Notes under the pieces: generated by a model
The model's database searches: none
What the model saw: only the letters and a program-made list of their open reading frames with translations
Told to the model about the DNA's origin: nothing
Source: Minisyncoccia bacterium
Lineage (GTDB): Bacteria; Patescibacteriota; Minisyncoccia; Phycocordibacterales; UBA5272
Length of the DNA: 64,000 nt
Direction: 5' to 3'
NCBI GenBank assembly: GCA_038326985.1
Contig: JBBQKQ010000002.1
Span: forward strand, 2,978 to 66,977
Position numbers and translations under genes: made by a program
Part shown: positions 3,873 to 60,757 of the stretch, piece after piece
How positions within the stretch are numbered: position 1 is the stretch's first letter
How the letters are laid out: each line of letters starts with the position of its first letter

Positions 3873-3891
3873 ATGTTATAATAAACCATAT

Positions 3892-4326
3892 ATGAAAATA
3901 CTTTTCTTAAAAAATGTACCAAGAGTAGGTCAAGTTGGGGAGGTGAAAGAAGTTGCACAAGGACATGCGAATTTTATTTTAAAAAGTGGAGCAGGAATTG
4001 TTGCGACAGATTCTATCCTAAAGCAACACATAAAGAAAATCGAAGAAGCGTCTATGAAAGCTAAAGGTGAAGAAAGTATGGCTCATGAAATTGCCAAGCG
4101 TGTAGATGGCAAAATATTTAGAATTATGGGTGGTGCAAACAGTAAAGGTAGCCTTTATAAAGCTTTCAAAAAGCACGACGTGCAAGAAGCCATCACTAAA
4201 GAAATTATAGTTGCTGTACCTGAGAATTTTTTAGAAGATGTAAATTTAAAGCTTACAGGTAAACACAAATTAAACCTTGTTTACAAAGGAAAAATTTTAA
4301 CTACTTTTGAAATTGAAATAGTCTAA
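3892..4326 (+). CDS. rplI: 50S ribosomal protein L9
   Basis: N-terminus MKILFLKNVPRVGQVGEVKEV...ANFIL matches the L9 N-domain consensus (M.viLL.dV..lG..G..V.V..GYARNFL). Length 144 aa fits L9. Confidence 0.75.
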   Translation: MKILFLKNVPRVGQVGEVKEVAQGHANFILKSGAGIVATDSILKQHIKKIEEASMKAKGEESMAHEIAKRVDGKIFRIMGGANSKGSLYKAFKKHDVQEAITKEIIVAVPENFLEDVNLKLTGKHKLNLVYKGKILTTFEIEIV

Positions 4327-5053: not shown

Positions 5054-5087
5054 GACCCCTCTTAACCTCCCCTTGGTAAGGGGAGGG
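5054..5087. repeat. Palindromic repeat family copy a, intergenic: GACCCCTCTTAACCTCCCCTTGGTAAGGGGAGGG
   Basis: Stem CCTCCCCTT / AAGGGGAGG with a 3 nt loop. It sits immediately 3' of the minus-strand GT2 gene stop and is near-identical to the copies at 19314 and 27347. Confidence 0.8.
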
Positions 5088-19192: not shown

Positions 19193-19833
19193 ATAATCCA
19201 AAAAAATTAATTGCCTACAGTATTATTTTTATAATTGGATATTTTTTAGGAGACAAAACAATTCAAAACTTTTCTTTAGACAACTTAAAAATCACCCTTA
19301 GTCCCTCTAATCAGACCCCTTCTAGCCTCCCCTTGGATAAGGGGAGGGACCTCATTGCAACTAGTACAAAATATATTGTAAATTATGTTGTAGATGGTGA
19401 CACTATTCATGTAAAAAATGAAAATGGCGTTGAGACTAAAGTAAGACTTTTAGCAGTAAATACTCTTGAGCTTCATGCAACGAGCTCAAGAGAAAAATGC
19501 TTAGCAGAACAAGAAAAACAGTTCACTAAACAAAACCTTCTAGGAAAAGAGGTTGTTTTAACAGCTGATCCCACTCAACCAAAACTTGATAAATATGGTC
19601 GAAGTTTGTTTTATATTAGCCTCACCCCACCTCGAAACGATGGCAAGGGTACACTTGAAGCGAAGCAAGAGGGAGAAGAGCAAACCTTTAATGAATTATT
19701 GATGAAAACTGGAAATGCGAAAATTTATAAGTCTTCACCACCTGCACAAATGTATACAAAATATTTAGATTTACAAAATCAAGCAATTCAAAGTCGTGTT
19801 GGTATTTGGGACCCGACAAATTGCAAATTATAA
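19180..19833 (+). CDS. Thermonuclease (staphylococcal nuclease, SNase)-like secreted or membrane-anchored nuclease
   Basis: N-terminal TM helix and an SNase core: YVVDGDTIHV...KVRLLAVNTLE...DKYGRSL. Carries in-frame palindromic repeat copy b. Confidence 0.7.
   Translation: MYYLNNPKKLIAYSIIFIIGYFLGDKTIQNFSLDNLKITLSPSNQTPSSLPLDKGRDLIATSTKYIVNYVVDGDTIHVKNENGVETKVRLLAVNTLELHATSSREKCLAEQEKQFTKQNLLGKEVVLTADPTQPKLDKYGRSLFYISLTPPRNDGKGTLEAKQEGEEQTFNELLMKTGNAKIYKSSPPAQMYTKYLDLQNQAIQSRVGIWDPTNCKL
19314..19348 (+). repeat. Palindromic repeat family copy b, in-frame inside the SNase-like gene
   Basis: GACCCCTTCTAGCCTCCCCTTGGATAAGGGGAGGG, translated as TPSSLPLDKGRD. Confidence 0.8.
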
Positions 19834-20404: not shown

Positions 20405-20660
20405 AAATGGAACTTAAAATTTTTGAAGAAGCAGAAATGCGGGACGCGCGAAGCGCCTCCCAATGGTTTCCGCCTAGATTTCCCCCAGAATCCGCAGAAG
20501 AATCTGCCAAAAATAAATCCGAATTTGGCGCGCAAGCGTGTGGAGTTTTTTCGCCGAGGAGGAGGTGCGAGCCAAAGATTTCTTCGGCACAGACCTTTTT
20601 AGAAAAAAGGTCTGAATCAGAAGCGATTTTGTCCAAGGATTGAGAGTCTTTTAGCCAGTT
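20405..20660. other. GC-rich (~50%) noncoding-looking segment between tRNA-Leu and the IS remnant. Function unknown.
   Basis: Composition strongly deviates from the ~30% GC surroundings. Local hairpins include GCGCGAAGCGC and CAGACCTTTTTagAAAAAAGGTCTG. The overlapping ORFs on both strands look spurious. Confidence 0.3.
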
Positions 20661-20989
20661 TTGGAAAGGTGTGAGCAAATCGTTCTGCTTATATAAAAAA
20701 GTAGATATATCTTATTTAAGAGATAAAAATTTTTTTTCCCCACAAAAGCAGTCAAAGATGGGTCGGAGTTTTTGTAGTCTTGCAAATCAAGACGATTTAA
20801 TTCCTCTACTCAGTCTTTGGGCAAAGAAGCTTTTTGAATTAAGAATGATAATTGCTAGTCTAGTTTTTCACAACGAAGCTACATTTCGGGACATTTCATT
20901 ACTTTAGATTTTTTTTTCGTATATCTGTAATACGCAAAGTGGATACTTGATCGTGGAGTTAGAAGATGCAAGGAATGTAAAAAAGATGT

Positions 20990-21680
20990 CTCTGTATAAG
21001 TGGACACAGTTTTGGTACATACTCAAATACCAATTAGGCTTTTGTTGCAAGCTATTTGGCTAATCATCTTTTCTAAACAAGGTGTCAATACTATGGAGTT
21101 AGTAAAAATGTTAGGCATGAAAAGTGAGAGATCTGGCTGGGACTTATTGCAAAAAATACTTAGTGCTATGGTCAAAACTTCAGCCAATTTACTATCTAGT
21201 TAGTAGAAATAGACGAGGTTTTCCTAGAAGGCGAGCATGCTGGTAAGCGTGGTTGAGGTGCCTTTGGTAAAACTTTGATACTTGTGATAGTTGAAGACAA
21301 AGTCGAAGCTAGATTCGGTAGAATACGAATGTGTGTCATAAAAAATGCTGAAGATCAAACTTTGTTAAAAGCCATACAAAGTATGGTATCTGTTGGCAGT
21401 ATAATTCGTAACGATCAACACAAAAGTTATTCACTCATAAAAGAGCATTACTACGAGCATAAACCTGTTGCTAAAGTTGTTCATAAACTTGGAGAAGACA
21501 ACACACCACTTGTGCAAAAAGTGGCTTCACTTTTTAAAAGGTGGCTTTTAGGAACTCATCAAGGTGGCATGGAACCTTTGTATATTCCATCTTACCTATA
21601 TGAATACACTTTCCGTTTTAATAGACTAAAATCCAAATCTCGTGATAAACTATTATTCGATAGAAAATCTAATTAAAAAA
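20990..21680 (+). pseudogene. Decayed IS1595-family (ISXO2-like) transposase, split into at least two frames
   Basis: 21000-21203 encodes HTQIPIRLLLQAIWLIIFSKQGVNTMELVKMLGM, matching the F.NTKIPLRKWF.AIYL...KGISS.QLAR HTH region. 21275-21676 encodes DNTPLVQKVASLFKRWLLGTHQGGMEPLYIPSYLYEYTFRFNR, matching the C-terminal HTN.IE..WS.LKR...GTYH.VS.KHL..Y..EF.FRYNNR signature. The catalytic core between them is missing or fragmented. Confidence 0.6.
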
Positions 21681-27035: not shown

Positions 27036-27704
27036 GTGCTAAGTAAAGAAGCGCAGTTTCTAAAAAAGAAAGATAAAATATTGGGTAAAATAATTTTAGA
27101 GGATTTACCTGTGCTAAAAAGTAGGGGAAATGTCTACGAGTCGTTACTCTCATCAATTATTTCTCAACAAATTTCATTAGGAGCAGCAAGATCAATAAAA
27201 GAAAAATTCTTAAAATTATTCAATAAAAATACATTGAAATTTCCACGCATAAAAGAACTATTGGAAATAAGCGACGAAGATTTGAGAAGTGCCGGACTTT
27301 CGAAACCAAAAATAGGTTATATGAAAAATGTTGCAGAACATTATAAGACCCCACCTAGCCTCCCCTTGTTAAGGGGAGGAACAGTGCAATATGAAAATAT
27401 GAGTGATAGTGAAGTAATAGCAGATTTAGTAAAAATAAAGGGTGTGGGAGAGTGGACAGCTGAAATGATACTTATTTTTTCCCTACTTAAACCGGATGTG
27501 TATTCTTATAAAGATTTAGCATTAACAAATACTATAATCGAAACTTACAATATAAAAAAAGACAACTACACTCCAAAACAACTGAAAGAAGAAGTTTTAA
27601 AAATAACTGACAAATGGTCCCCGCACCGAAGCTTGGCTTCTAGATATTTATGGGAATATAGAGGTAAAAAGAAAATAAAATTAATAAATAAAAATCTCAC
27701 TTGA
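27036..27704 (+). CDS. HhH-GPD superfamily DNA glycosylase (AlkA / 3-methyladenine glycosylase II-like), GTG start
   Basis: HhH-GPD core VKIKGVGEWTAEMILIFSL...D. Contains in-frame palindromic repeat copy c just upstream of the HhH motif. Confidence 0.65.
   Translation: MLSKEAQFLKKKDKILGKIILEDLPVLKSRGNVYESLLSSIISQQISLGAARSIKEKFLKLFNKNTLKFPRIKELLEISDEDLRSAGLSKPKIGYMKNVAEHYKTPPSLPLLRGGTVQYENMSDSEVIADLVKIKGVGEWTAEMILIFSLLKPDVYSYKDLALTNTIIETYNIKKDNYTPKQLKEEVLKITDKWSPHRSLASRYLWEYRGKKKIKLINKNLT
27347..27380 (+). repeat. Palindromic repeat family copy c, in-frame inside the glycosylase gene
   Basis: GACCCCACCTAGCCTCCCCTTGTTAAGGGGAGGA, translated as TPPSLPLLRGGT. Confidence 0.8.
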
Positions 27705-30495: not shown

Positions 30496-30652
30496 TAGGG
30501 CTATCTGTAAAAAACTTTACTAAAATTTTTACAGGAGGCTTTATATAGATTCACCTGCCGCGCTTTCAAAAGAAATTTTGTTCGTACGAATATGGAAATT
30601 CTTGCGGTCTCCGCCCTTAAGTTAATCCTTAAGGTTTAAGCAGATAGCCCTA
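30496..30652. repeat. ~157 bp element bounded by 12 bp inverted repeats TAGGGCTATCTG / CAGATAGCCCTA. MITE-like or a structured RNA.
   Basis: Perfect 12 bp terminal inverted repeats. The interior has hairpins CTGTAAAAA/TTTTTACAG, palindromic TTCGTACGAA and CCTTAAG..CTTAAGG. It is GC-richer than the flanks and has no ORF. Confidence 0.3.
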
Positions 30653-30681: not shown

Positions 30682-31020
30682 TTGCTTCGTTTTTTGTTTG
30701 GGTGTAGAATTTTAGATGACCGACAAAACGGTCAGCGTTCAAAGGAAAAAAAAGATGGCAAAAAGCAAACGAGGAGCCGTAAAGGCATCCCGGAGGAGGA
30801 GGTGCCTTAGTGGTAATCCTGATTTGGTGGGGCAACATCACCAACTGCAAACAACCACGTTAGGTGGGGACTCGAGAGAGACTCCAAAAAGATATGACTA
30901 TGGGGGACGAACCTTTGTGTTTCCGGAAAGCACTTGGGAGTTGAATGATCTCAACTTCTAAGCTCAGTCTTCTTTGGGAAACGTTTGTGGGGCGCTGCAA
31001 AGCAGCGCCCCTTTTACTTT
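30682..31020 (+). other. Mini transcription unit 1: TTGCTT-N17-TAGAAT promoter, SD plus a 68 aa basic ORF (30755-30961), and a GC hairpin terminator (30988-31020). Possibly an sRNA.
   Basis: Promoter box TTTGGGTGTAGAAT shared with unit 2. AGGA Shine-Dalgarno 10 nt before the ATG. Terminator GGGGCGCTGCAAAGCAGCGCCCC + TTTTACTTTTT. About 45% GC in a ~30% GC genome. Confidence 0.35.
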
Positions 31021-31055
31021 TTAATTATCTTAAAAAATATATTTGAAAAAGACAT

Positions 31056-31336
31056 TTGCTTTGTTTAAAGTTTGGGTGTAGAATTTAAAAGCTGTCAACC
31101 TGTAAAAGAAGGAAAAATCATGACTAAAAAGAAACCTTCAGGTGCACATGGCGCAAAAGGGGCAAAGCTTAGACGTGCAGAAAGATGGCTGCGTCAGAAC
31201 TTTGCGAAGTTCTTTTTCAGAACTCCGCGGATGACTCAAGAAACACCTTCGGTGATCTTGCATCAAGCGACAGGTTAATCCCGTAGAGCCAAAAAGAGGT
31301 AGGGGCGTCACAAATCGACGCCCCTTTTACTTTTTA
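31056..31336 (+). other. Mini transcription unit 2, paralogous to unit 1: TTGCTT-N17-TAGAAT promoter, SD plus a 52 aa basic ORF (31120-31278), and a GC hairpin terminator (31302-31336)
   Basis: Same promoter box AGTTTGGGTGTAGAAT and the same terminator tail GCCCCTTTTACTTTTTAA as unit 1. The ORF starts MTKKKPSGAHGAKGAKLRRAERW. Confidence 0.35.
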
Positions 31337-31361
31337 AAATTTTTATTGTATTATATATTTT

Positions 31362-45287: not shown

Positions 45288-45319
45288 AATCATGTTATAA
45301 TTAAAACATGATTTTTTTG
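45288..45319 (+). terminator. Hairpin AAATCATGTT-ataattaa-AACATGATT + T7. It overlaps the annotated ATG of the next ORF.
   Basis: 9-10 bp perfect stem followed by TTTTTTT. The annotated start codon at 45308 lies in the 3' arm. Confidence 0.35.
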
Positions 45320-46816: not shown

Positions 46817-46836
46817 ATGTGCTATAATAATTCGAA

Positions 46837-47787
46837 ATGTTAAAAGAATTCTTTGTAAATAATTTCGGGAAAATTGGAACTGGAATACTTAGTGTCATGT
46901 TGTTGGTTTTGGCCTATCTTGCTTACCAGATATATTTACCAATTTCAAACTTTCCCGTTTCCAAAAATAATGAAGTAAGTTTTGTAATTGCAAAAGATGA
47001 AAATGGAGCACAGATATTTGATGACTTAAAAACAAAAGGTTTTATAAAGGATGTTTTCTACGCAAAACTTGTTTCAAAAGCATTTGGGTATAATAGATTT
47101 TACCCCGAAGAATATGTATTCCAAAATCCAATGTCCACATTTGACATTGTGATAACCGTATCTACTCGTCCTCCTAGTATTGCAGTATTAATCCCAGAAG
47201 GCTTCACTAAAAAACAAGTTGCTGAAAGAATCGCTGCTACTATTAAAAACTTCGACAAGGAAAGCTTTTTGGCAAGTAGTAGTGAAGGATATTTATTTCC
47301 CGATACCTATTATTTTTATAAGTCATATACTAACAGTGAAATATTAAGTGAATTCCAAACTAAATTTTACAAAGAGACATTTGCAAAGTTTGGTAAAGTG
47401 CCAACAAACCAAGAGGTAATCATTGCTTCTATTTTGGAGCGTGAAGGAAAAGACCCGGAAGATATGAAAATGATTTCAGGAATAATTCAGAACCGGTTAA
47501 AAATAAATATGCCACTTCAAATCGACGCTACAGTTTTGTATGGCAACAATACTTGGAAAAGTATTACGTATTATAAGGATTTAAAATCTAAAAATAATTA
47601 TAATACCTACCTTAATATTGGTCTTCCTATTGGTCCCATATCAAACCCTGGCTTACTAGCTCTTGATGCTGCTATGAACCCTTCTAAAACCGATTATCTT
47701 TTTTACTTAACAGGGAGAGACGGAAAAATGTATTATGCAAAAACTAATGAAGAGCACGTGAAAAATAAATTTAAATATTTAAAATAA
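46837..47787 (+). CDS. mltG: YceG/MltG endolytic murein transglycosylase family protein
   Basis: N-terminal TM helix and the YceG core ASILEREGKDPEDMKMISGIIQNRLKINMPLQIDATVLYG...GLPIGPISNPG. Confidence 0.7.
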   Translation: MLKEFFVNNFGKIGTGILSVMLLVLAYLAYQIYLPISNFPVSKNNEVSFVIAKDENGAQIFDDLKTKGFIKDVFYAKLVSKAFGYNRFYPEEYVFQNPMSTFDIVITVSTRPPSIAVLIPEGFTKKQVAERIAATIKNFDKESFLASSSEGYLFPDTYYFYKSYTNSEILSEFQTKFYKETFAKFGKVPTNQEVIIASILEREGKDPEDMKMISGIIQNRLKINMPLQIDATVLYGNNTWKSITYYKDLKSKNNYNTYLNIGLPIGPISNPGLLALDAAMNPSKTDYLFYLTGRDGKMYYAKTNEEHVKNKFKYLK

Positions 47788-48355: not shown

Positions 48356-48379
48356 AAGTTCTCATGATATAATATATTT

Positions 48380-49717
48380 GTGAAAAAAATTTTGTTATTT
48401 TATTTTTTAATTGTGGTTATCTTTTCTTATCAACAAGTTTCAGCCTTTGGGAGTTTTGACTATCAAAACTTTTTCCAAAATTTTGGTCTTAATTCTTTTT
48501 TAAGAAATATAAACTTTGGAGAAAATATTTATAGACCTGTAACTAGAATTACAAGTCTTGTAATATCTACACCTTCAACTTCATCTCCAAATTTAAATGA
48601 AGAAAATGTTTTTTTACATATTGATAATAATGATACTAACAGAAATTACTCACCCACGACTTTTAATCCAAGAGCACTCGAGGAAAATAAAATAACTCCT
48701 AATTTTGCTCCTCAAACTACTCTTGAAAGACTCTTAAGCAGCTTGAGTCCTAATACTTCAAGCGGCACTACTCCCCAAATTACAGGGCTTCAGCAAAGTG
48801 AACCCGTCTCCAATACTTATGGACTTTTTGCAACCACAACCACTAATTCTTCAGTACAAGAACTAAGAAGAGTTGACCAAACTGGAATTGTCCAACCGAG
48901 TTCAGTTCCTAACGTTGATGCATCTCCAGCTTCAGGAGGACTTCTACCAAGCGATATTAATTTTAGTCTCCAAACTGCTATTCAAGCGGCTTTTAGAAAT
49001 TTTCCTGCAACTGGACCAGTTAACCCTGCTATTTGGGATGGTAATCCACTTACAAGACCCAACCAATTACTGGCGTCGACTTCACTTATTGAAATGAACA
49101 GACCAACTTTTAGAGTTGCACTAGGAAGTTCTACTGATGTTATAAATAGTTTACAAGATGGAAGATTTACAATACTCCCTGATAATTGGTTGAAAACTAA
49201 AGCTACAAACTTTGGTTTGACAGTAAATGGTGGAGCAGATACTGGACTGGTAAATTTTGCTTTGGGTTGTCCAACGTCTATGAGTGGTTTTTCCAGAGGA
49301 GGGGTGAGGGTTTGTAACCAAAGTACATGTGTAGTCGGAATACCACCAGACGTAATGGACTATTATTTTGGAAAAACAACTTGGAATAGACCTCGCTGGG
49401 CACCATACCCCGCAGGTGAAAATGCTCAGTCTATTTTGACTCTTTATAGAAGAATTGCCGGTACACCAATAGAAATAATAAACGAAAGAAATAACAGATG
49501 TACCGTTGTTCCACTTTGGGAAACAGGTCCATCAAAAAGCGAATGTGCAGGAAAGGGTTGCGGAATAGATCTGACTTATTGTGTGAAAGTTGTTCTACTT
49601 GAAAACAGGGAAGGGAGAACTCCCGTAAGGTATAGACCAGTACCTCAGGGGAAACGAGGTTGCGAAGGTTTTCAATATATTCAAGCACCGGTAAACACTT
49701 TACCAGAAAGAAGATAA
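48380..49717 (+). CDS. Hypothetical secreted protein: Ser/Thr/Pro/Asn-rich N-terminal half and Cys-rich C-terminal half
   Basis: Signal peptide ending VSAFG. A low-complexity region. Ten or more Cys in the C-terminal 170 aa (GCPTSMSG...CNQSTC...CAGKGCGIDLTYC). Confidence 0.4.
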   Translation: MKKILLFYFLIVVIFSYQQVSAFGSFDYQNFFQNFGLNSFLRNINFGENIYRPVTRITSLVISTPSTSSPNLNEENVFLHIDNNDTNRNYSPTTFNPRALEENKITPNFAPQTTLERLLSSLSPNTSSGTTPQITGLQQSEPVSNTYGLFATTTTNSSVQELRRVDQTGIVQPSSVPNVDASPASGGLLPSDINFSLQTAIQAAFRNFPATGPVNPAIWDGNPLTRPNQLLASTSLIEMNRPTFRVALGSSTDVINSLQDGRFTILPDNWLKTKATNFGLTVNGGADTGLVNFALGCPTSMSGFSRGGVRVCNQSTCVVGIPPDVMDYYFGKTTWNRPRWAPYPAGENAQSILTLYRRIAGTPIEIINERNNRCTVVPLWETGPSKSECAGKGCGIDLTYCVKVVLLENREGRTPVRYRPVPQGKRGCEGFQYIQAPVNTLPERR

Positions 49718-51028: not shown

Positions 51029-51550
51029 ATGATGCAAATCTTAAAAGTGTTTCTAGGAATAGTTTTTGGCCTATTACTAATTTATATTGTTATAATTATT
51101 TTTAGGGCAGTTTTTTTAACTGGTGTTTCTACTGTGAGTACAGTGTCAAACGATGTTTCTCCAGCGAAAAACGTAGTTACTACGGCAAAAAGGTTTTCGT
51201 GGCAAGATTTTGTAAATTATTGGAGGTTGCCTATTGCTCCAGTGACTATTGTTCCAAATATTACTTCAAGTGTGTATTACTCCACACAAGAGGAACAAAA
51301 TTATAAATACCAAAATTTAAACAATGCCGACTCTCCAGATAACCACCCTACAGATTGGGCACCGGTGGATCAGAGACCTTTCGACGAAAGATGGGGATTG
51401 CAAAACAAAAATCAGAACTATCAACAAAACTTTAATGGAAACCTTTACGAAAATTTACCAGTTCAAAAATACTTTAATCATAACTTTCCTCAATTAAAAC
51501 TCCTTTTCCCAAGCCGAGCATTAATGTATCCTAATTATCAAAACTATTAA
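51029..51550 (+). CDS. Hypothetical membrane-anchored protein with an Asn/Gln/Tyr-rich low-complexity (prion-like) C-terminal half
   Basis: N-terminal TM helix, then QNYKYQNLNN...QNKNQNYQQNFNGNLYENLPVQKYFNHNFPQ...YPNYQNY. Confidence 0.35.
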   Translation: MMQILKVFLGIVFGLLLIYIVIIIFRAVFLTGVSTVSTVSNDVSPAKNVVTTAKRFSWQDFVNYWRLPIAPVTIVPNITSSVYYSTQEEQNYKYQNLNNADSPDNHPTDWAPVDQRPFDERWGLQNKNQNYQQNFNGNLYENLPVQKYFNHNFPQLKLLFPSRALMYPNYQNY

Positions 51551-51593
51551 TACCTACTTGCAATTATTTTAAATAATGTTATTATTGTAATTG

Positions 51594-51720
51594 CTGGGTG
51601 GGGGTCCCCCCCGATGACCCACCTAGCGCATGCTGCTGCATCGCCCTACGCAGCAGCAGAGTGGTCCGAACTCCTGGAAGATTAGAGCTATTAAGCTCTC
51701 ATCCAGGGGTTCGGCCATTT
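51594..51720 (+). ncRNA. Candidate structured small RNA or complex terminator: ~125 nt, ~60% GC, three hairpins, ending in a terminator-like stem plus T-tract
   Basis: H1: GGTGGG...CCCACC around a C7 run. H2: TGCTGCTGC-atcgccctac-GCAGCAGCA (9 bp). H3: a 14 bp interrupted stem GGtCCGAACTCCTGG...CCAGGGGTTCGGCC enclosing AGAGCT-atta-AGCTCT, followed by ATTTCTCTTTGCATTTTT. It lies between the stop at 51550 and the rpoB promoter. Confidence 0.3.
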
Positions 51721-51724
51721 CTCT

Positions 51725-51752
51725 TTGCATTTTTAGAATTTTGTGTTATAAT
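51725..51752 (+). promoter_or_regulatory. rpoB promoter: TTGCAT, 16 nt spacer, TGtTATAAT
   Basis: TTGCAT 51725-30 and an extended -10 TGTTATAAT ending at 51752, with an ~85 nt leader to the rpoB ATG. Confidence 0.45.
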
Positions 51753-51837
51753 CCGCGGCAACGAATGAGTTCCGACAAGTGTAAAAAAGTGCGAGATATT
51801 TTAATAAAAAGAAGGGTAAATTAATTTAATCATTCAT

Positions 51838-54800
51838 ATGACTACAAAAGTAATTCAAAAGTACTTTTCGAAATTCCGCGCTCCACTTGTTGAAGTTCCA
51901 AATCTAGTTGAAAACCAAATAAATTCTTATAACCTTTTTCTAAAAGAGGGTTTTGGAAATGTTTTGAGAGAGTTTACTCCTATTTCTGATTACTCAGGAA
52001 AAAAGTTTGATTTAGAAATTGTTAAATTTGAAATTGGAGATGCTAAGATGACTGAAATGGAGGCTAAAATGAAAAAGCAAACATTTGAAGCTCCAATACG
52101 TGCAACTTTTAAATTAAAAAACAAACTTCTTAATACCGAAAAAACTCAGGAGCTCTTTTTGGCTGACATGCCACTTATGACTGACCATGGTACTTTTATA
52201 ATTAATGGAATTGAGCGTGTAATTGTTTCTCAACTTATTAGATCATACGGAGTTTTCATATCAAGTGAAGAAGCTAAAGGGAAAGAATACTACGGTGCAA
52301 AAATTATTCCAGCTCGAGGAGTGTGGATAGAAATGCAAACTACTAACGACAATGAGATAGTAGTAAGAATTGACAAAAAAAGAAAATTTTCAATTATTAC
52401 ACTTTTACGAGCTTTTGGATATAAAACCGATGTTGAACTTTTGGGAGCATTTAAAGGTGATAAATCTCGCGCTTATATAAAAGCACTTTTAAAAACTGAC
52501 CCAATTAAAAACCAAGAAGATGCCTACGTAGAACTTTATAAAAAAGTTCGTGATGGAGATTTGGCTTCAGCTGATAATGCCAAAGAATATTTTGCATCTA
52601 TTTTTGATAAGGCAAGATATGACTTTTCACTTGTTGGAAGATTTAGATTTAATAAACGTTTTGGCCTTCCTTTAGAAGGAAAAGACCTTGATAGAAAAAC
52701 TTTTTCTAAAGAAGATTTGGCTATGGTTGTGGAGTCAATAATTAATTCTAATGAAAACATAGAAGCTATTCCAGATGATATTGACCACTTAGGATCTCGA
52801 AGAGTAAGATTTGTGGGTGAAATAATTGAAGGAAGAATTCGAACAGGAATGATCCAAGTAAAAAGAAATATCCAAGATCGTATGTCGGTAGTTGATGGAG
52901 ACACAACACTTCCAACAAATATTGTAAATCAGCGACCTTTACAAGCTCGTATCAAAGAGTTTTTTGCTACCAACCAACTTTCACAGTTCATGAACCAAGA
53001 TAATCTTCTTGGAGAAATTGAGCACTTAAGAACACTTTCTGCCATGGGACCTGGAGGTTTAAACTCTGAGCGTGCTTCATTTGAAGTTCGTGACGTGCAC
53101 ACCTCTCACTACGGTAGAGTATGTCCAGTGCACACTCCAGAAGGTCATACTATTGGGCTAATTTTGCGTATGTCTACTTATGCTAAAGTAAATAATTTTG
53201 GAATTCTTGAAACCCCATACGTTGTGGTGAAAGATGGTAAGATAACAGGTAAAATAGTTTATTTAAATGCTCTGGAAGAAGAAGCTTATGTTATTGCTCA
53301 CCAAGGTTTAAACTACAATGACAAAGGAGTTATTACTGATGATTTTGTGCAAGCAAGAGTTCGAACTATACCGGGAATTATTTCTGCGGACCAAGTCCAA
53401 CTTGTAGAAGTTTCTACATTCCAACAATTCTCAGTGGCAACTTCTCTTATTCCATTCCTAGAACATGACGATGCGACTCGTGCGTCTTACGGTGCAAACA
53501 TGCAGAAACAAGCAACTCCGGTTATTATTCCAGAGCTTCCAATTGTTGCCTCAGGACTAGAAAGTGAATATGCAAAATATACAGGAAGATTGGTTTATGC
53601 ACCGGCAAACGGAGAAATAGTTTTTGCAGATGCCAACAAAATAGAATTTATTGCTGATACTGATAAAGGAAACAATAAAAAGAAAATCACTTATCCTTTG
53701 CTTTCATTCCAAAGAACAAACCAATTTACAAATTTCCACCAAAGACCAGTCGTTAGAAATGGTGAAAAAGTAAAGAAGGGGCAAATTATGGTTGACGTTT
53801 CTACTTCAGATCGAGGGCAAATTGCTCTTGGACAAAATGTATTGGTAGCTTTCATGACTTGGAATGGAAATAACTTTGAAGATGCGATTATTCTTTCAGA
53901 AAGGTTAGTTAGAAATAAGAAGTTTACTAGTATTCATATTGAGGAGTTTGTATGTTTAGTTCGTGAGACAAAACTAGGACCAGAAAACACTACTTGCGAT
54001 ATTCCAAATGTTTCTGAAAACAGACTGAAGGATTTGGATGCCAATGGAATTATCCGAATGGGTGCAGAGGTTGAGCCGGGAGATATTTTAGTAGGAAAGA
54101 TTACTCCAAAAGGAGAAACTGATCTTACTCCAGAAGAAAGACTACTTAGAAGTATTTTCGGAGAAAAAAGTAGAGAAGTAAAAGATACTTCAATGCGTGT
54201 TGAAAATGGAAAACGTGGACGTGTTATTGGGGTAAAAATATTTGATAGAAGTAAAGGTGACACTCTTGAAACTGGAATCTTAAAAAGAATTCACGTAGAA
54301 GTTGCACAGCTTAGAAATATTTCTGTTGGAGATAAGCTTGCTGGTAGACACGGAAACAAAGGTGTAATTTCAGTAGTGCTACCCGAAGAAGAAATGCCAT
54401 TTATGGCCGACGGTACTCCTATTGATATTGTACTTACTCCACTCGGTGTGCCATCACGTATGAACCTAGGACAAATATTGGAAATTCACCTTGGGCTTGC
54501 AGCTGACAAGCTTGGCTACCAAGCTGTAGTTCCACCTTTTCAAGGTGCGACTGCTGATGAAATTTCCCAAGAGCTTGTAAAAGCTGGATATCAGTCCAAT
54601 GGTAAAATGCCACTTTTCGATGGACAAACAGGTGAGAAATTTGAACAAGACATTGCGGTGGGTATCATGTATATTTTGAAACTTCACCACATGGTTGAAG
54701 ATAAAATTCACATGCGCTCTACTGGTCCATACTCGCTTATTACTCAGCAACCTCTTGGTGGACGTGCACAAGGTGGAGGACAAAGACTTGGAGAAATGGA

Positions 54801-55235: not shown

Positions 55236-55270
55236 AACCCCTCCTAACCTCCCCTTGATTAAGGTGAGGA
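55236..55270 (+). repeat. Palindromic repeat copy e in the rpoB-rpoC spacer, or in-frame at the extreme rpoC N-terminus if the 55216 start is used
   Basis: AACCCCTCCTAACCTCCCCTTGATTAAGGTGAGGA, translated in the 55216 frame as TPPNLPLIKVRN. Confidence 0.7.
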
Positions 55271-59000: not shown

Positions 59001-59035
59001 AAAAACAGCTATTGAAAAAAATAGCTGTTTTTTTG
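59001..59035 (+). terminator. Rho-independent terminator after rpoC
   Basis: AAAAACAGCTATT-gaaaaaa-ATAGCTGTTTTT followed by T7. Confidence 0.6.
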
Positions 59036-59054
59036 TGGTAATATTAGAAATATA

Positions 59055-59099
59055 AATCCTCCCTAGCCCTCCTTGAGAAAGGAGGGCTAGGGAGGATTT
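59055..59099. repeat. Palindromic repeat family copy f: the longest and perfect copy, a 19 bp stem, intergenic between rpoC and dnaG
   Basis: AAATCCTCCCTAGCCCTCCTT-gagaa-AGGAGGGCTAGGGAGGATTT, a perfect inverted repeat. Confidence 0.8.
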
Positions 59100-59122
59100 T
59101 TGAACTCTGTTATAATGTCTTT

Positions 59123-60757
59123 GTGAAAGACAACCGTAATTTAGAACTGATTAAAGAAAGATTAAATATTTTAGACGTTGTTTCGACCTACATAAAGTTG
59201 GAAAAAGCAGGCTCTCAGTTCCGAGCCCGCTGTCCATTTCATAATGAAAAAAGCCCTAGTTTTTATATTTCTCCAGCTCGCGGAACTTACCATTGTTTTG
59301 GCTGTAGTGAGCATGGAGATATCTTTGGTTTTACAATGAAAATTGAAGGCTTACAGTTTAAAGATGCTCTTAAAATGTTGGCTGATAAAGCTGGAGTATC
59401 ACTTTCAAATTTTAGAAAAGAAGAAGTGGGAAATGTTTTGGATATTTTAGAAAATACAACAATATTTTTTGAAGAGAATTTAAAAAATAATATTGATGCG
59501 CAAAATTATTTAAAGAGTAGGGGATTAAGCACTGAAATAATAAAAAGGTTTAGAGTTGGATTTGCACAAAACGACTGGCGAACACTTTATACTTATCTGC
59601 AAAAATTAAACTATTCTGATGAAGAGATATTAAGTAGTGGTGTTTGCATACGTCATGAAAAAGACAATAAAGTTTCGTTATATGATAGATTTCGAAGTAG
59701 AGTAATGTTTCCAATCATGAATGCCTCGGGTAAAGTTGTGGCTTTTACAGGAAGAATTATTGGAATGGACGAAGGTAGGGACGAGGTTGCAAAATATGTT
59801 AATAGCCCTGAAACTGAAACTTATCACAAGTCTAGTATTTTATTTGGCTATGACAAAGCCAAAATGGAAATTGGGAAAACAAAAAAAGTAATTGTGGTAG
59901 AAGGGCAAATGGACGTTGTTATGACTCATATGGCTGGAACACAAAACGTTGTAGCCATTTCAGGTACCGCCTTTACACCCGAGCACATTTCTATTTTAAA
60001 AAGATTCGCAGAAGTTGTTGTCTTGGCACTTGACTCGGACAAAGCAGGGTACAATGCTATGTTAAAGTCTGCAAGTTTGGCATTACAAAGTGACCTAGAA
60101 GTTGAAGGTATAAAAATGACCAATAAAGACCCCGCAGATATGGTAAAAACAGATCCTAAAATGTGGGATGAGGCAGTAAAAAATAGTAAGCCAATTTTGA
60201 CTCTCATTGCAGAAATAATTAAAGAAAAAGAAAGTGTGAGACCAAAACAAATTCAACTCATGAGAAAAGATTTGTTTCCACTACTTCGAGTAGTAAAAAG
60301 CCCACTTTTAAAACAAGCATATTTACAAGAAATAGCAGAAATATTAAATGTTGCCCCCAACATTATTCAAGAAGAAGTAGACTTAATAAAAAGTGAGTTA
60401 GAAGGACAAATTAAAAAAGAAAAAAAAATAGTACCCAAAATAGATATTTTAACAATAGTTGCAAAGGGTAAAGCTGCAAGTGAAATACTAAAAATAAAGC
60501 TTGAGTTGGATATGGAAGAAATACCAGATGATATTTTAAACAAAGAACATATTTTGTTAGAAAAAAGTTTATCTGAAGTTAAAGCGGGAGATGAAAAAGA
60601 AAAAGAAAGAATTTTACGCGAGGCAATATATTTAGCTAAAAAAGTAATTTATGAAAATGCTATTATGATAGCTAAAAATAAAATTGGCGAAGGGGTAGAC
60701 ATGGAAGAAAATTTAAAAATCATACAAGAATTTTCTAAAAAACTAAAAAACATATGA
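59123..60757 (+). CDS. dnaG: DNA primase, GTG start
   Basis: Zn-ribbon CPFHNEKSPSFYIS...YHCFGCSEHGD, TOPRIM VEGQMDV...LDSD. TATAAT at 59111-16 lies only 6 nt upstream, so the mRNA is possibly leaderless. Confidence 0.85.
   Translation: MKDNRNLELIKERLNILDVVSTYIKLEKAGSQFRARCPFHNEKSPSFYISPARGTYHCFGCSEHGDIFGFTMKIEGLQFKDALKMLADKAGVSLSNFRKEEVGNVLDILENTTIFFEENLKNNIDAQNYLKSRGLSTEIIKRFRVGFAQNDWRTLYTYLQKLNYSDEEILSSGVCIRHEKDNKVSLYDRFRSRVMFPIMNASGKVVAFTGRIIGMDEGRDEVAKYVNSPETETYHKSSILFGYDKAKMEIGKTKKVIVVEGQMDVVMTHMAGTQNVVAISGTAFTPEHISILKRFAEVVVLALDSDKAGYNAMLKSASLALQSDLEVEGIKMTNKDPADMVKTDPKMWDEAVKNSKPILTLIAEIIKEKESVRPKQIQLMRKDLFPLLRVVKSPLLKQAYLQEIAEILNVAPNIIQEEVDLIKSELEGQIKKEKKIVPKIDILTIVAKGKAASEILKIKLELDMEEIPDDILNKEHILLEKSLSEVKAGDEKEKERILREAIYLAKKVIYENAIMIAKNKIGEGVDMEENLKIIQEFSKKLKNI

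Follow-up and report, generated by a model that had tools for sequence, protein, structure and literature searches.

Directly upstream of the rpoB promoter of an uncultured member of the Patescibacteria (CPR) lies a GC-rich, strongly folding element of 129 nt that we tentatively read, with somewhat less than even confidence, as a lineage-specific orphan sRNA gene whose terminator would also shield the rpoB promoter. The element occupies positions 51592-51720 on the plus strand of the window, by which we mean the whole 64-kb stretch of DNA that was analyzed, and it is located between an ORF of 173 amino acids and the rpoB promoter (Table 1). It is a real feature, unusual for its genome, and an orphan found in a single genome only. 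Three consecutive hairpins make up its predicted fold, and a promoter-like site that we call P_up precedes the first of them.

Fold, composition and flanking signals

The stop codon of the 173-aa ORF and the start of rpoB (ATG at 51838) are separated by 287 nt. The 5' edge of the element is found 42 nt past the ORF stop (51550) and its 3' edge 5 nt ahead of the rpoB -35. The initial annotation had described three consecutive hairpins with a perfect 9-bp stem, a long terminal stem followed by a T-tract, a local GC content of about 60% in an AT-rich background, and a position past the stop of the upstream ORF and ahead of the rpoB promoter. This description holds in the predicted fold and in the composition, with the details that the last stem comprises 26 pairs and that the T-rich tail is interrupted.

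Folded separately, hairpins 1, 2 and 3 have predicted energies of -21.9, -15.2 and -38.2 kcal/mol (z -3.4, -3.3 and -8.1, respectively), and each is thus significant by itself. The apical loop of hairpin 1 is CCCCCC, which is part of a C7 run; the pairs of hairpin 3 fall into segments of 6, 13 and 7, and the hairpin has a single bulge and small internal loops. The minimum free energy (MFE) of the 129 nt together is -76.4 kcal/mol (z -7.1), and that of a 151-nt stretch is -78.3 kcal/mol (z -8.35), a stability that was equaled by none of 200 shuffles. The centroid and MFE structures of the element nearly coincide, so that the prediction gives no alternative to this fold. Of the two strands, the plus strand forms the more stable structure (-78.3 kcal/mol, z -8.35, versus -72.3 kcal/mol, z -6.5, for the minus strand), and three internal G.U pairs of the plus strand become A.C mismatches on the minus strand, with no case of the opposite kind. 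This asymmetry in fold energy and G.U pairs would weakly favor an RNA read from the plus strand over a strand-symmetric DNA palindrome (about 1 in 8 for the G.U pairs).

The GC content of the element is 0.60, with an 80-nt peak of 0.68, in a window of 0.33; the three tRNAs of the window match the element in this respect (0.57-0.63). The boundaries of the GC-rich block coincide exactly with those of the paired region, which is how structured RNA usually shows itself in an AT-rich genome (Stav et al. 2019, PMC6429828).

Table 1. Positions of the features in and around the three-hairpin element (window coordinates)
Feature	Position	Strand	Description
Upstream 173-aa ORF	51029-51550	+	Ortholog in the closest relative (L001); no Pfam domain
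P_up, promoter-like site	51558-51585	+	-35 TTGCAA (51558-51563), 16-nt spacer, extended -10 TGtTATTAT (51577-51585)
Block without counterpart in L001	51553-51736	.	Pairwise alignment, one gap of ~184 nt
Hairpin 1	51592-51628	+	10-11 bp stem including one internal G.U; 3-bp apical extension
Hairpin 2	51631-51658	+	Perfect 9-bp stem UGCUGCUGC/GCAGCAGCA; 10-nt loop AUCGCCCUAC
Hairpin 3	51659-51720	+	62 nt, 26 pairs; candidate intrinsic terminator stem
Tail	51717-51735	+	ATTTCTCTTTGCATTTTTA, 12 T in 19, interrupted; overlaps the rpoB promoter -35
rpoB promoter	51725-51752	+	TTGCAT-N16-TGtTATAAT
rpoB 5' leader	51759-51837	+	Clade-conserved motif CAACGAATGAGTTCCGACAAG ... ATATTTTAATAA; outside the element, alignment anchor

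P_up (TTGCAA-N16-TGtTATTAT) was missed in the initial annotation. It ends 7 nt ahead of the first paired base of hairpin 1, and the transcription start predicted from it (~51592) is the first base of that hairpin. Judged by its letters, P_up appears to be a near-twin of the rpoB promoter and as good a match. A loose search pattern, TTGCAW-N15-18-TAWWAT, was found three times in the window versus 1.9 occurrences expected; the specific pattern TTGCAW-N13-TGTTATWAT, searched at up to one mismatch, was found twice versus 0.12 expected, and these two matches are P_up and the rpoB promoter, which flank the element. The spacers of the two promoters are identical at only 5 of 14 positions (hand count) and are thus dissimilar, so that the functional positions alone are shared. 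By itself, TGnTATTAT has no strand bias in the window, with six occurrences on each strand. The 7 nt from P_up to the stem equal the distance between the extended -10 and the start codons of apparently leaderless genes.

A separate observation concerns the TGnTATAAT extended -10 elements of the window, 16 of 18 of which are on the coding strand. Many of them end 7-10 nt ahead of an ATG or GTG (for example at 3874-3892, 45293-45308, 46820-46837, 48365-48380 and 59108-59123), a proximity that suggests many leaderless mRNAs in this organism.

At the other end of the element, the tail sequence AUUUCUCUUUGCAUUUUU is T-rich and interrupted, and a simple consensus terminator scan did not call hairpin 3 and the tail as a terminator. 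The clear terminators of the window have CCCC followed by TTTTACTTTT. Hairpin 3, with the energy and z score given above, does have the GC-rich stem-loop of an intrinsic terminator, and a promoter of its own, as expected of an sRNA gene, is predicted in silico 7 nt from the first stem. P_up, the three hairpins and the long last hairpin with its interrupted U-tract therefore present the anatomy of an independent transcription unit. Upstream, the 173-aa ORF begins 34 nt past tRNA-Cys and is therefore probably co-transcribed with tRNA-Leu and tRNA-Cys.

Our survey of the window and of the relatives' loci also recorded several other structured or repeated features. Past rpoC there is an AT-rich terminator hairpin (59003-59036). 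After it, and immediately ahead of the dnaG promoter, comes a GC-rich hairpin with a perfect stem of 21 bp and a TTTT at its end (59054-59099; AAATCCTCCCTAGCCCTCCTT/AAGGAGGGCTAGGGAGGATTT), the sequence of which is in none of the relatives' loci fetched. Short palindromic repeats of the form CCTCCCCTT-N3-4-AAGGGGAGG make up a family with members at 5066-5086, 19326-19347, 27359-27379 and 55248-55269, and its 9-mer occurs 7 times versus 0.1 expected. Three members (19326, 27359 and 55248) are located within ORFs and are read there in one common frame (Leu-Pro-Leu...); no member was found in the relatives' loci. The pair GGGGTGAGG/CCTCACCCC is likewise over-represented in the window. The intergenic stretch 30496-30652 (plus strand) is predicted to form a multi-branch fold with a 13-bp closing stem (GGGCUAUCUG.../...CAGAUAGCCC; z -4.25); it has no Rfam match and might be another candidate non-coding RNA. 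It is followed by two tandem small-gene units (30690-31030 and 31060-31340) that encode small basic peptides and are almost alike in promoter (TTTGGGTGTAGAATTT) and terminator (GGGGCG...CGCCCC TTTTACTTTTTAA). Downstream of tRNA-Leu, the stretch 20405-21270 is GC-rich at its start and contains no long ORF; its translated fragments give the impression of a decayed IS1595/ISXO2-type transposase. Among the relatives, contig L083 (13650-13760) has a GC-rich unit of 36 nt (GGGAACACTTATGCCGGGCACTTAAGACCGGCGAAA) that is present as three identical copies in tandem between pseudopilin-like genes, and in the sister contig L082 the matching gap is about 36 nt shorter, with no GC-rich peak at the repeat region (compared by composition only).

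Homolog searches and the syntenic site in relatives

No Rfam covariance model matched over the element at the gathering threshold, and a search of the local 501 nt at E<=10 returned only noise (mir-1781 at 15.8 bits, gathering 68, and U6 at 10.7 bits, gathering 44). ARAGORN found only the three tRNAs of the window, and the element is neither a tRNA nor a tmRNA. The Rfam scan that the initial annotation had proposed thus yields no family for the element, and its calls against SRP RNA, tmRNA and RNase P are confirmed by Rfam and ARAGORN. Individual classes were also considered and rejected. SRP RNA has the wrong architecture and its Rfam models gave no match; 6S RNA is a rod with a large central bubble of ~180 nt, rather than three separate hairpins over 129 nt, and gave no Rfam match. 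Resemblances to 5S rRNA (GUGGGGGUCCCC, CCCACCU and CCGAACUC) were not significant, as the local alignment of the element with the E. coli 5S scored 18, a score reached by 135 of 1000 shuffles. A permuted 5S alignment scored no better, there was no Rfam 5S match, and the fold consists of three independent hairpins instead of the 5S three-way junction with its closing helix. Nor does the element match a riboswitch or attenuator leader of rpoB, as the conserved rpoB promoter is downstream of it and no mutually exclusive folds are predicted.

At the protein level, none of the five ORFs across the element was found in a collection of 15 billion proteins, and a six-frame concatenated query had no match at E<=10 among 5.8 billion proteins, so that the element represents no small gene and no recognizable fragment of one. 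At the nucleotide level, a blastn-short search against the window and 89 loci gave no homolog, and a single-sequence covariance model (R1) run against the window and 18 relatives' loci (290 kb) recovered only the element itself. A metagenome scan with a 22-mer from the element gave 0 matches, and one with a loop-anchored gapped pattern gave a single chance match in a GC-rich coding region. The matches of four viral scans were chance matches in coding regions only, and blastn searches of phages and plasmids with the element region matched only the AT-rich flanks.

Two kinds of RNA target were examined. The 5' arm of hairpin 3 is complementary at 9 of 10 positions to the conserved motif GAGUUCCGAC of the rpoB leader, yet antisense pairing with the leader was rejected as a chance effect, as the RNAduplex energy of the element with the leader was matched by 397 of 500 shuffled elements. 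Targeting of Shine-Dalgarno sequences by the C-rich loops is unsupported: in a scan of 54 translation-initiation regions of the window, no duplex was better than those of shuffled sequences.

The best RpoB relatives of the organism are MAGs labelled Paceibacterota, Nomurabacteria and the like. The closest genome (L001, MAG GFS_6112) has an RpoB 93.5% identical over 1088 aa. It contains the tRNA-Cys and an ortholog of the ORF, and at rpoB it has the -10 and a leader that is almost unchanged. There the ORF stop abuts the rpoB promoter directly, and the element is absent. Compared to L001, the ~184-nt block of Table 1 is one clean insertion between the stop codon/-35 region and the rpoB -10. It takes in P_up, all three hairpins and their tail, and also the present -35 of rpoB, and its 3' end supplies TTGCAT at the correct distance from the rpoB -10.

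The element is likewise absent from the rpoB-upstream site of seven more distant lineages, whose RpoB is 73-85% identical. The gap between the upstream gene and rpoB is 96-150 nt in L082/83, L084/85, L087-89, L099 and L100/101 and 201 nt in L098. It is 505 nt in L086, where an unrelated GC-rich (0.71) insert of ~330 nt is found in the same place. Comparative genomics, which the initial annotation had named as a check, thus gives no evolutionary support for a conserved function: absence from relatives, which the initial annotation had listed among its refuting observations, is what L001 and the seven lineages show, and no homolog was found in the searches. By parsimony the block was gained in the lineage of the window after the split from L001. 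Over the same relatives and searches, the element lacks the conservation of a structured RNA family and offers no homolog in which covariation could be seen.

The L086 insert (in the region 7453-7830 of L086) follows DnaA boxes (TGTGGATAA / TTATCCACA) located past a gene with a DnaA_C domain, and it contains a Shine-Dalgarno sequence, an orphan ORF of 54 aa and a long terminal hairpin followed by UUUCU. The insert (z -3.7) has no Rfam match and the 54-aa ORF has no protein homolog; the idea that the rpoB-upstream site collects identifiable host DNA is unsupported.

The proteins neighboring the element are singletons at 90% identity, and the collections therefore contain no conspecific genome. 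An independent Logan assembly, the only other one of the same organism (L081, SRR19962015), breaks off at 51597, with just the first four to five bases of the element included. Such a break could fit a repeat boundary, a presence/absence polymorphism or a drop of coverage in the GC-rich hairpins. Low coverage is an equally good explanation, as the contig measures only 2 kb and is cut off within a gene at its other end.

The rpoB promoter named in the initial annotation is real in a comparative sense, as its arrangement and leader spacing are kept in relatives. In five of nine other rpoB-upstream regions (L082, L084, L086, L087 and L098; the comparison left out L099) a -35 is located ~17 nt ahead of TGnTA(T/G)AAT. 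This -35 is TTGCAA in four relatives and TTTGGA in L098. The promoter of L001 is TTGATA-N17-TATAAT, without the TG. We also noted in the rpoB leader a clade-conserved motif, CAA-(C/T)GA(A/T)TGAGT(A/T)(A/C)CGAC... and then ATTTTAATAA, whose distance from the -10 is constant (window 51759-51812; L001 2925-2985; rpoB-upstream regions of L082, L084, L086, L087, L098 and L099). Independently of the element, this motif is a candidate for a site that regulates rpoBC in cis.

A proposed sRNA unit and its alternatives

In the reading that we tentatively prefer, the sigma-70-type P_up, which matches the rpoB promoter at the functional positions, would start transcription at about 51592 and produce a non-coding RNA of ~130 nt with three stable GC-rich hairpins. 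Hairpin 3 and the U-rich tail would stop most of this transcription a few bases ahead of the rpoB -35. The unit would end transcription coming from P_up as well as from the upstream tRNA-ORF unit, leaving rpoBC to be read from its own conserved promoter, and the shielding of that promoter would be a by-product of the sRNA unit. If the RNA acts in trans, the exposed C-rich loops would be its obvious contact surfaces. The initial annotation had offered either an independent sRNA or a terminator-insulator; both are still leading, the sRNA side gaining support from the putative P_up and none from homologs.

Because the element and the unrelated L086 insert occupy the same spot, one may go further and propose a recurrent insertion of small GC-rich, promoter-bearing, terminator-ended RNA cassettes at the rpoB promoter of this clade of Patescibacteria, a proposal that we consider improbable. 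If it were true, the element would be an sRNA gene, acquired or born recently, under copied rpoB promoter signals, and its RNA would be made in step with RNA polymerase. It would then represent small mobile RNA-gene cassettes of a new kind or, alternatively, capture the birth of an sRNA gene in a reduced genome.

The alternative that survives best, although we regard it as rather unlikely, is that of an insertion without function, that is, foreign GC-rich DNA or a palindromic or mobile element (MITE-, REP-, BOX- or IS200/605-end-like) kept for its replacement -35. The clean indel relative to L001, with a 3' end giving TTGCAT, and the absence from every relative examined are what such an insertion would leave. 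The near-perfect stems point the same way, as they suggest young or unconstrained sequence, and the genome contains other short GC-rich palindromic repeats. L086 shows that the site accepts unrelated GC-rich inserts. The Logan break would fit a repeat or a presence/absence polymorphism, but it may simply reflect low coverage of a short contig. A repeat family would have many copies, whereas the element is single-copy in the 64-kb window and in all loci examined. By inspection it has neither terminal inverted repeats nor a clear target-site duplication, and the -35 regions of the two promoters that flank it resemble each other only loosely. The phage, plasmid, viral and metagenome collections gave no match, nor did the protein searches identify it as a fragment; furthermore, the G.U asymmetry and the promoter twin suggest constraint at the levels of RNA and promoter.

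It is also possible, though in our estimation unlikely, that the element is purely a cis-acting terminator or insulator, in which the hairpins form the 3' end of the tRNA-Leu/tRNA-Cys/ORF transcript and P_up is silent or irrelevant. The location of the element just past the ORF stop and just short of the rpoB -35 is suited to this role. Another long perfect GC-rich hairpin followed by TTTT is found after rpoC, directly upstream of the dnaG promoter, and the differing GC-rich insert of L086 also finishes in a long terminal hairpin and UUUCU in the same place. However, ordinary terminators in the window are single hairpins of ~10 bp with a clean T-run (30989-31011 and 31301-31325), and three hairpins with -78 kcal/mol go far beyond what termination needs. 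Moreover, six of the nine other rpoB-upstream regions (L001, L082/83, L084/85, L087-89, L099 and L100/101) are short (96-150 nt) and without a comparable GC-rich hairpin block; a need for insulation is thus not conserved. Under this explanation a well-placed twin of the rpoB promoter would be left unaccounted for.

Finally, a cis-acting leader or attenuator of rpoBC, with P_up as a second promoter and hairpin 3 as a partial terminator whose read-through sets the level of RNA polymerase, in analogy to the attenuator ahead of rpoB in E. coli, seems very improbable, since two tandem look-alike promoters parted by a terminator-like hairpin directly upstream of rpoB and an imperfect U-tract that would permit read-through are set against a conserved promoter and leader downstream of the element that suffice in all relatives, a predicted fold with no anti-terminator alternative (centroid and MFE agree), and an element without conservation.

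Comparison with known systems and significance

Typical trans-acting sRNA genes have their own sigma-70 promoter, 5' hairpins and a Rho-independent terminator. The element is similar to them in its length (~130 nt), in a promoter-like site 7 nt ahead of the first stem and in a long last hairpin with a U-rich tail; unlike them, it has no Rfam sRNA match and no complementary G-rich target in the window. C-rich loops are known from sRNAs of the RsaE/RoxS type, and the apical loops of the element are C-rich as well (CCCCCC in the C7 run; CGCCCUAC). In contrast to that type, its poly-C loop contains no U, which pairing with a GGAGG Shine-Dalgarno sequence needs, and many genes of the host appear leaderless.

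The rplL-rpoB intergenic region of E. coli contains an attenuator and a hairpin processed by RNase III; this hairpin is part of the rplJL-rpoBC transcript and is not followed by a major promoter for rpoB. Both systems have a stable hairpin or terminator directly upstream of rpoB, and hairpin 3 (26 bp) is long enough to serve as an RNase III substrate. They differ in that a conserved rpoB promoter follows the element, and there is no sequence relationship between the two. Palindromic repeat elements, such as REP/BIME, the pneumococcal BOX, the Correia elements of Neisseria and the IS200/605-derived PATEs, are defined by many copies per genome. The element is similar to these as a modular, intergenic run of hairpins of ~130 nt beside a promoter, present or absent between close relatives and able to supply promoter or terminator signals; it differs in that a single copy was seen in the 64-kb window, without terminal inverted repeats or target duplication.

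The closest parallel in approach is the 'GC-IGR' search for structured-RNA candidates in GC-rich intergenic regions of AT-rich bacterial genomes (Stav et al. 2019, PMC6429828). Like the candidates of that search, the element is rich in GC, folds strongly and is located between genes of a genome that is itself low in GC and has short intergenic regions, and it is as prominent there as a tRNA. Unlike the GC-IGR families it has one representative, from which neither a consensus nor covariation can be derived, and in that scheme a motif with fewer than five representatives is 'unnamed' or a 'low-ranking candidate', which is how the element would rank (PMC6429828).

The element should accordingly be taken as a flagged candidate, together with the caution that strong folding alone is no proof of function. 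Almost nothing is known about regulatory RNAs in the Patescibacteria (CPR), which have tiny genomes and few recognizable regulators. An sRNA-like unit with its own signals, located where the RNA polymerase operon has its promoter, would offer this group a concrete candidate for testing and, being absent from a close relative, would be a clean example of how sRNA genes appear.
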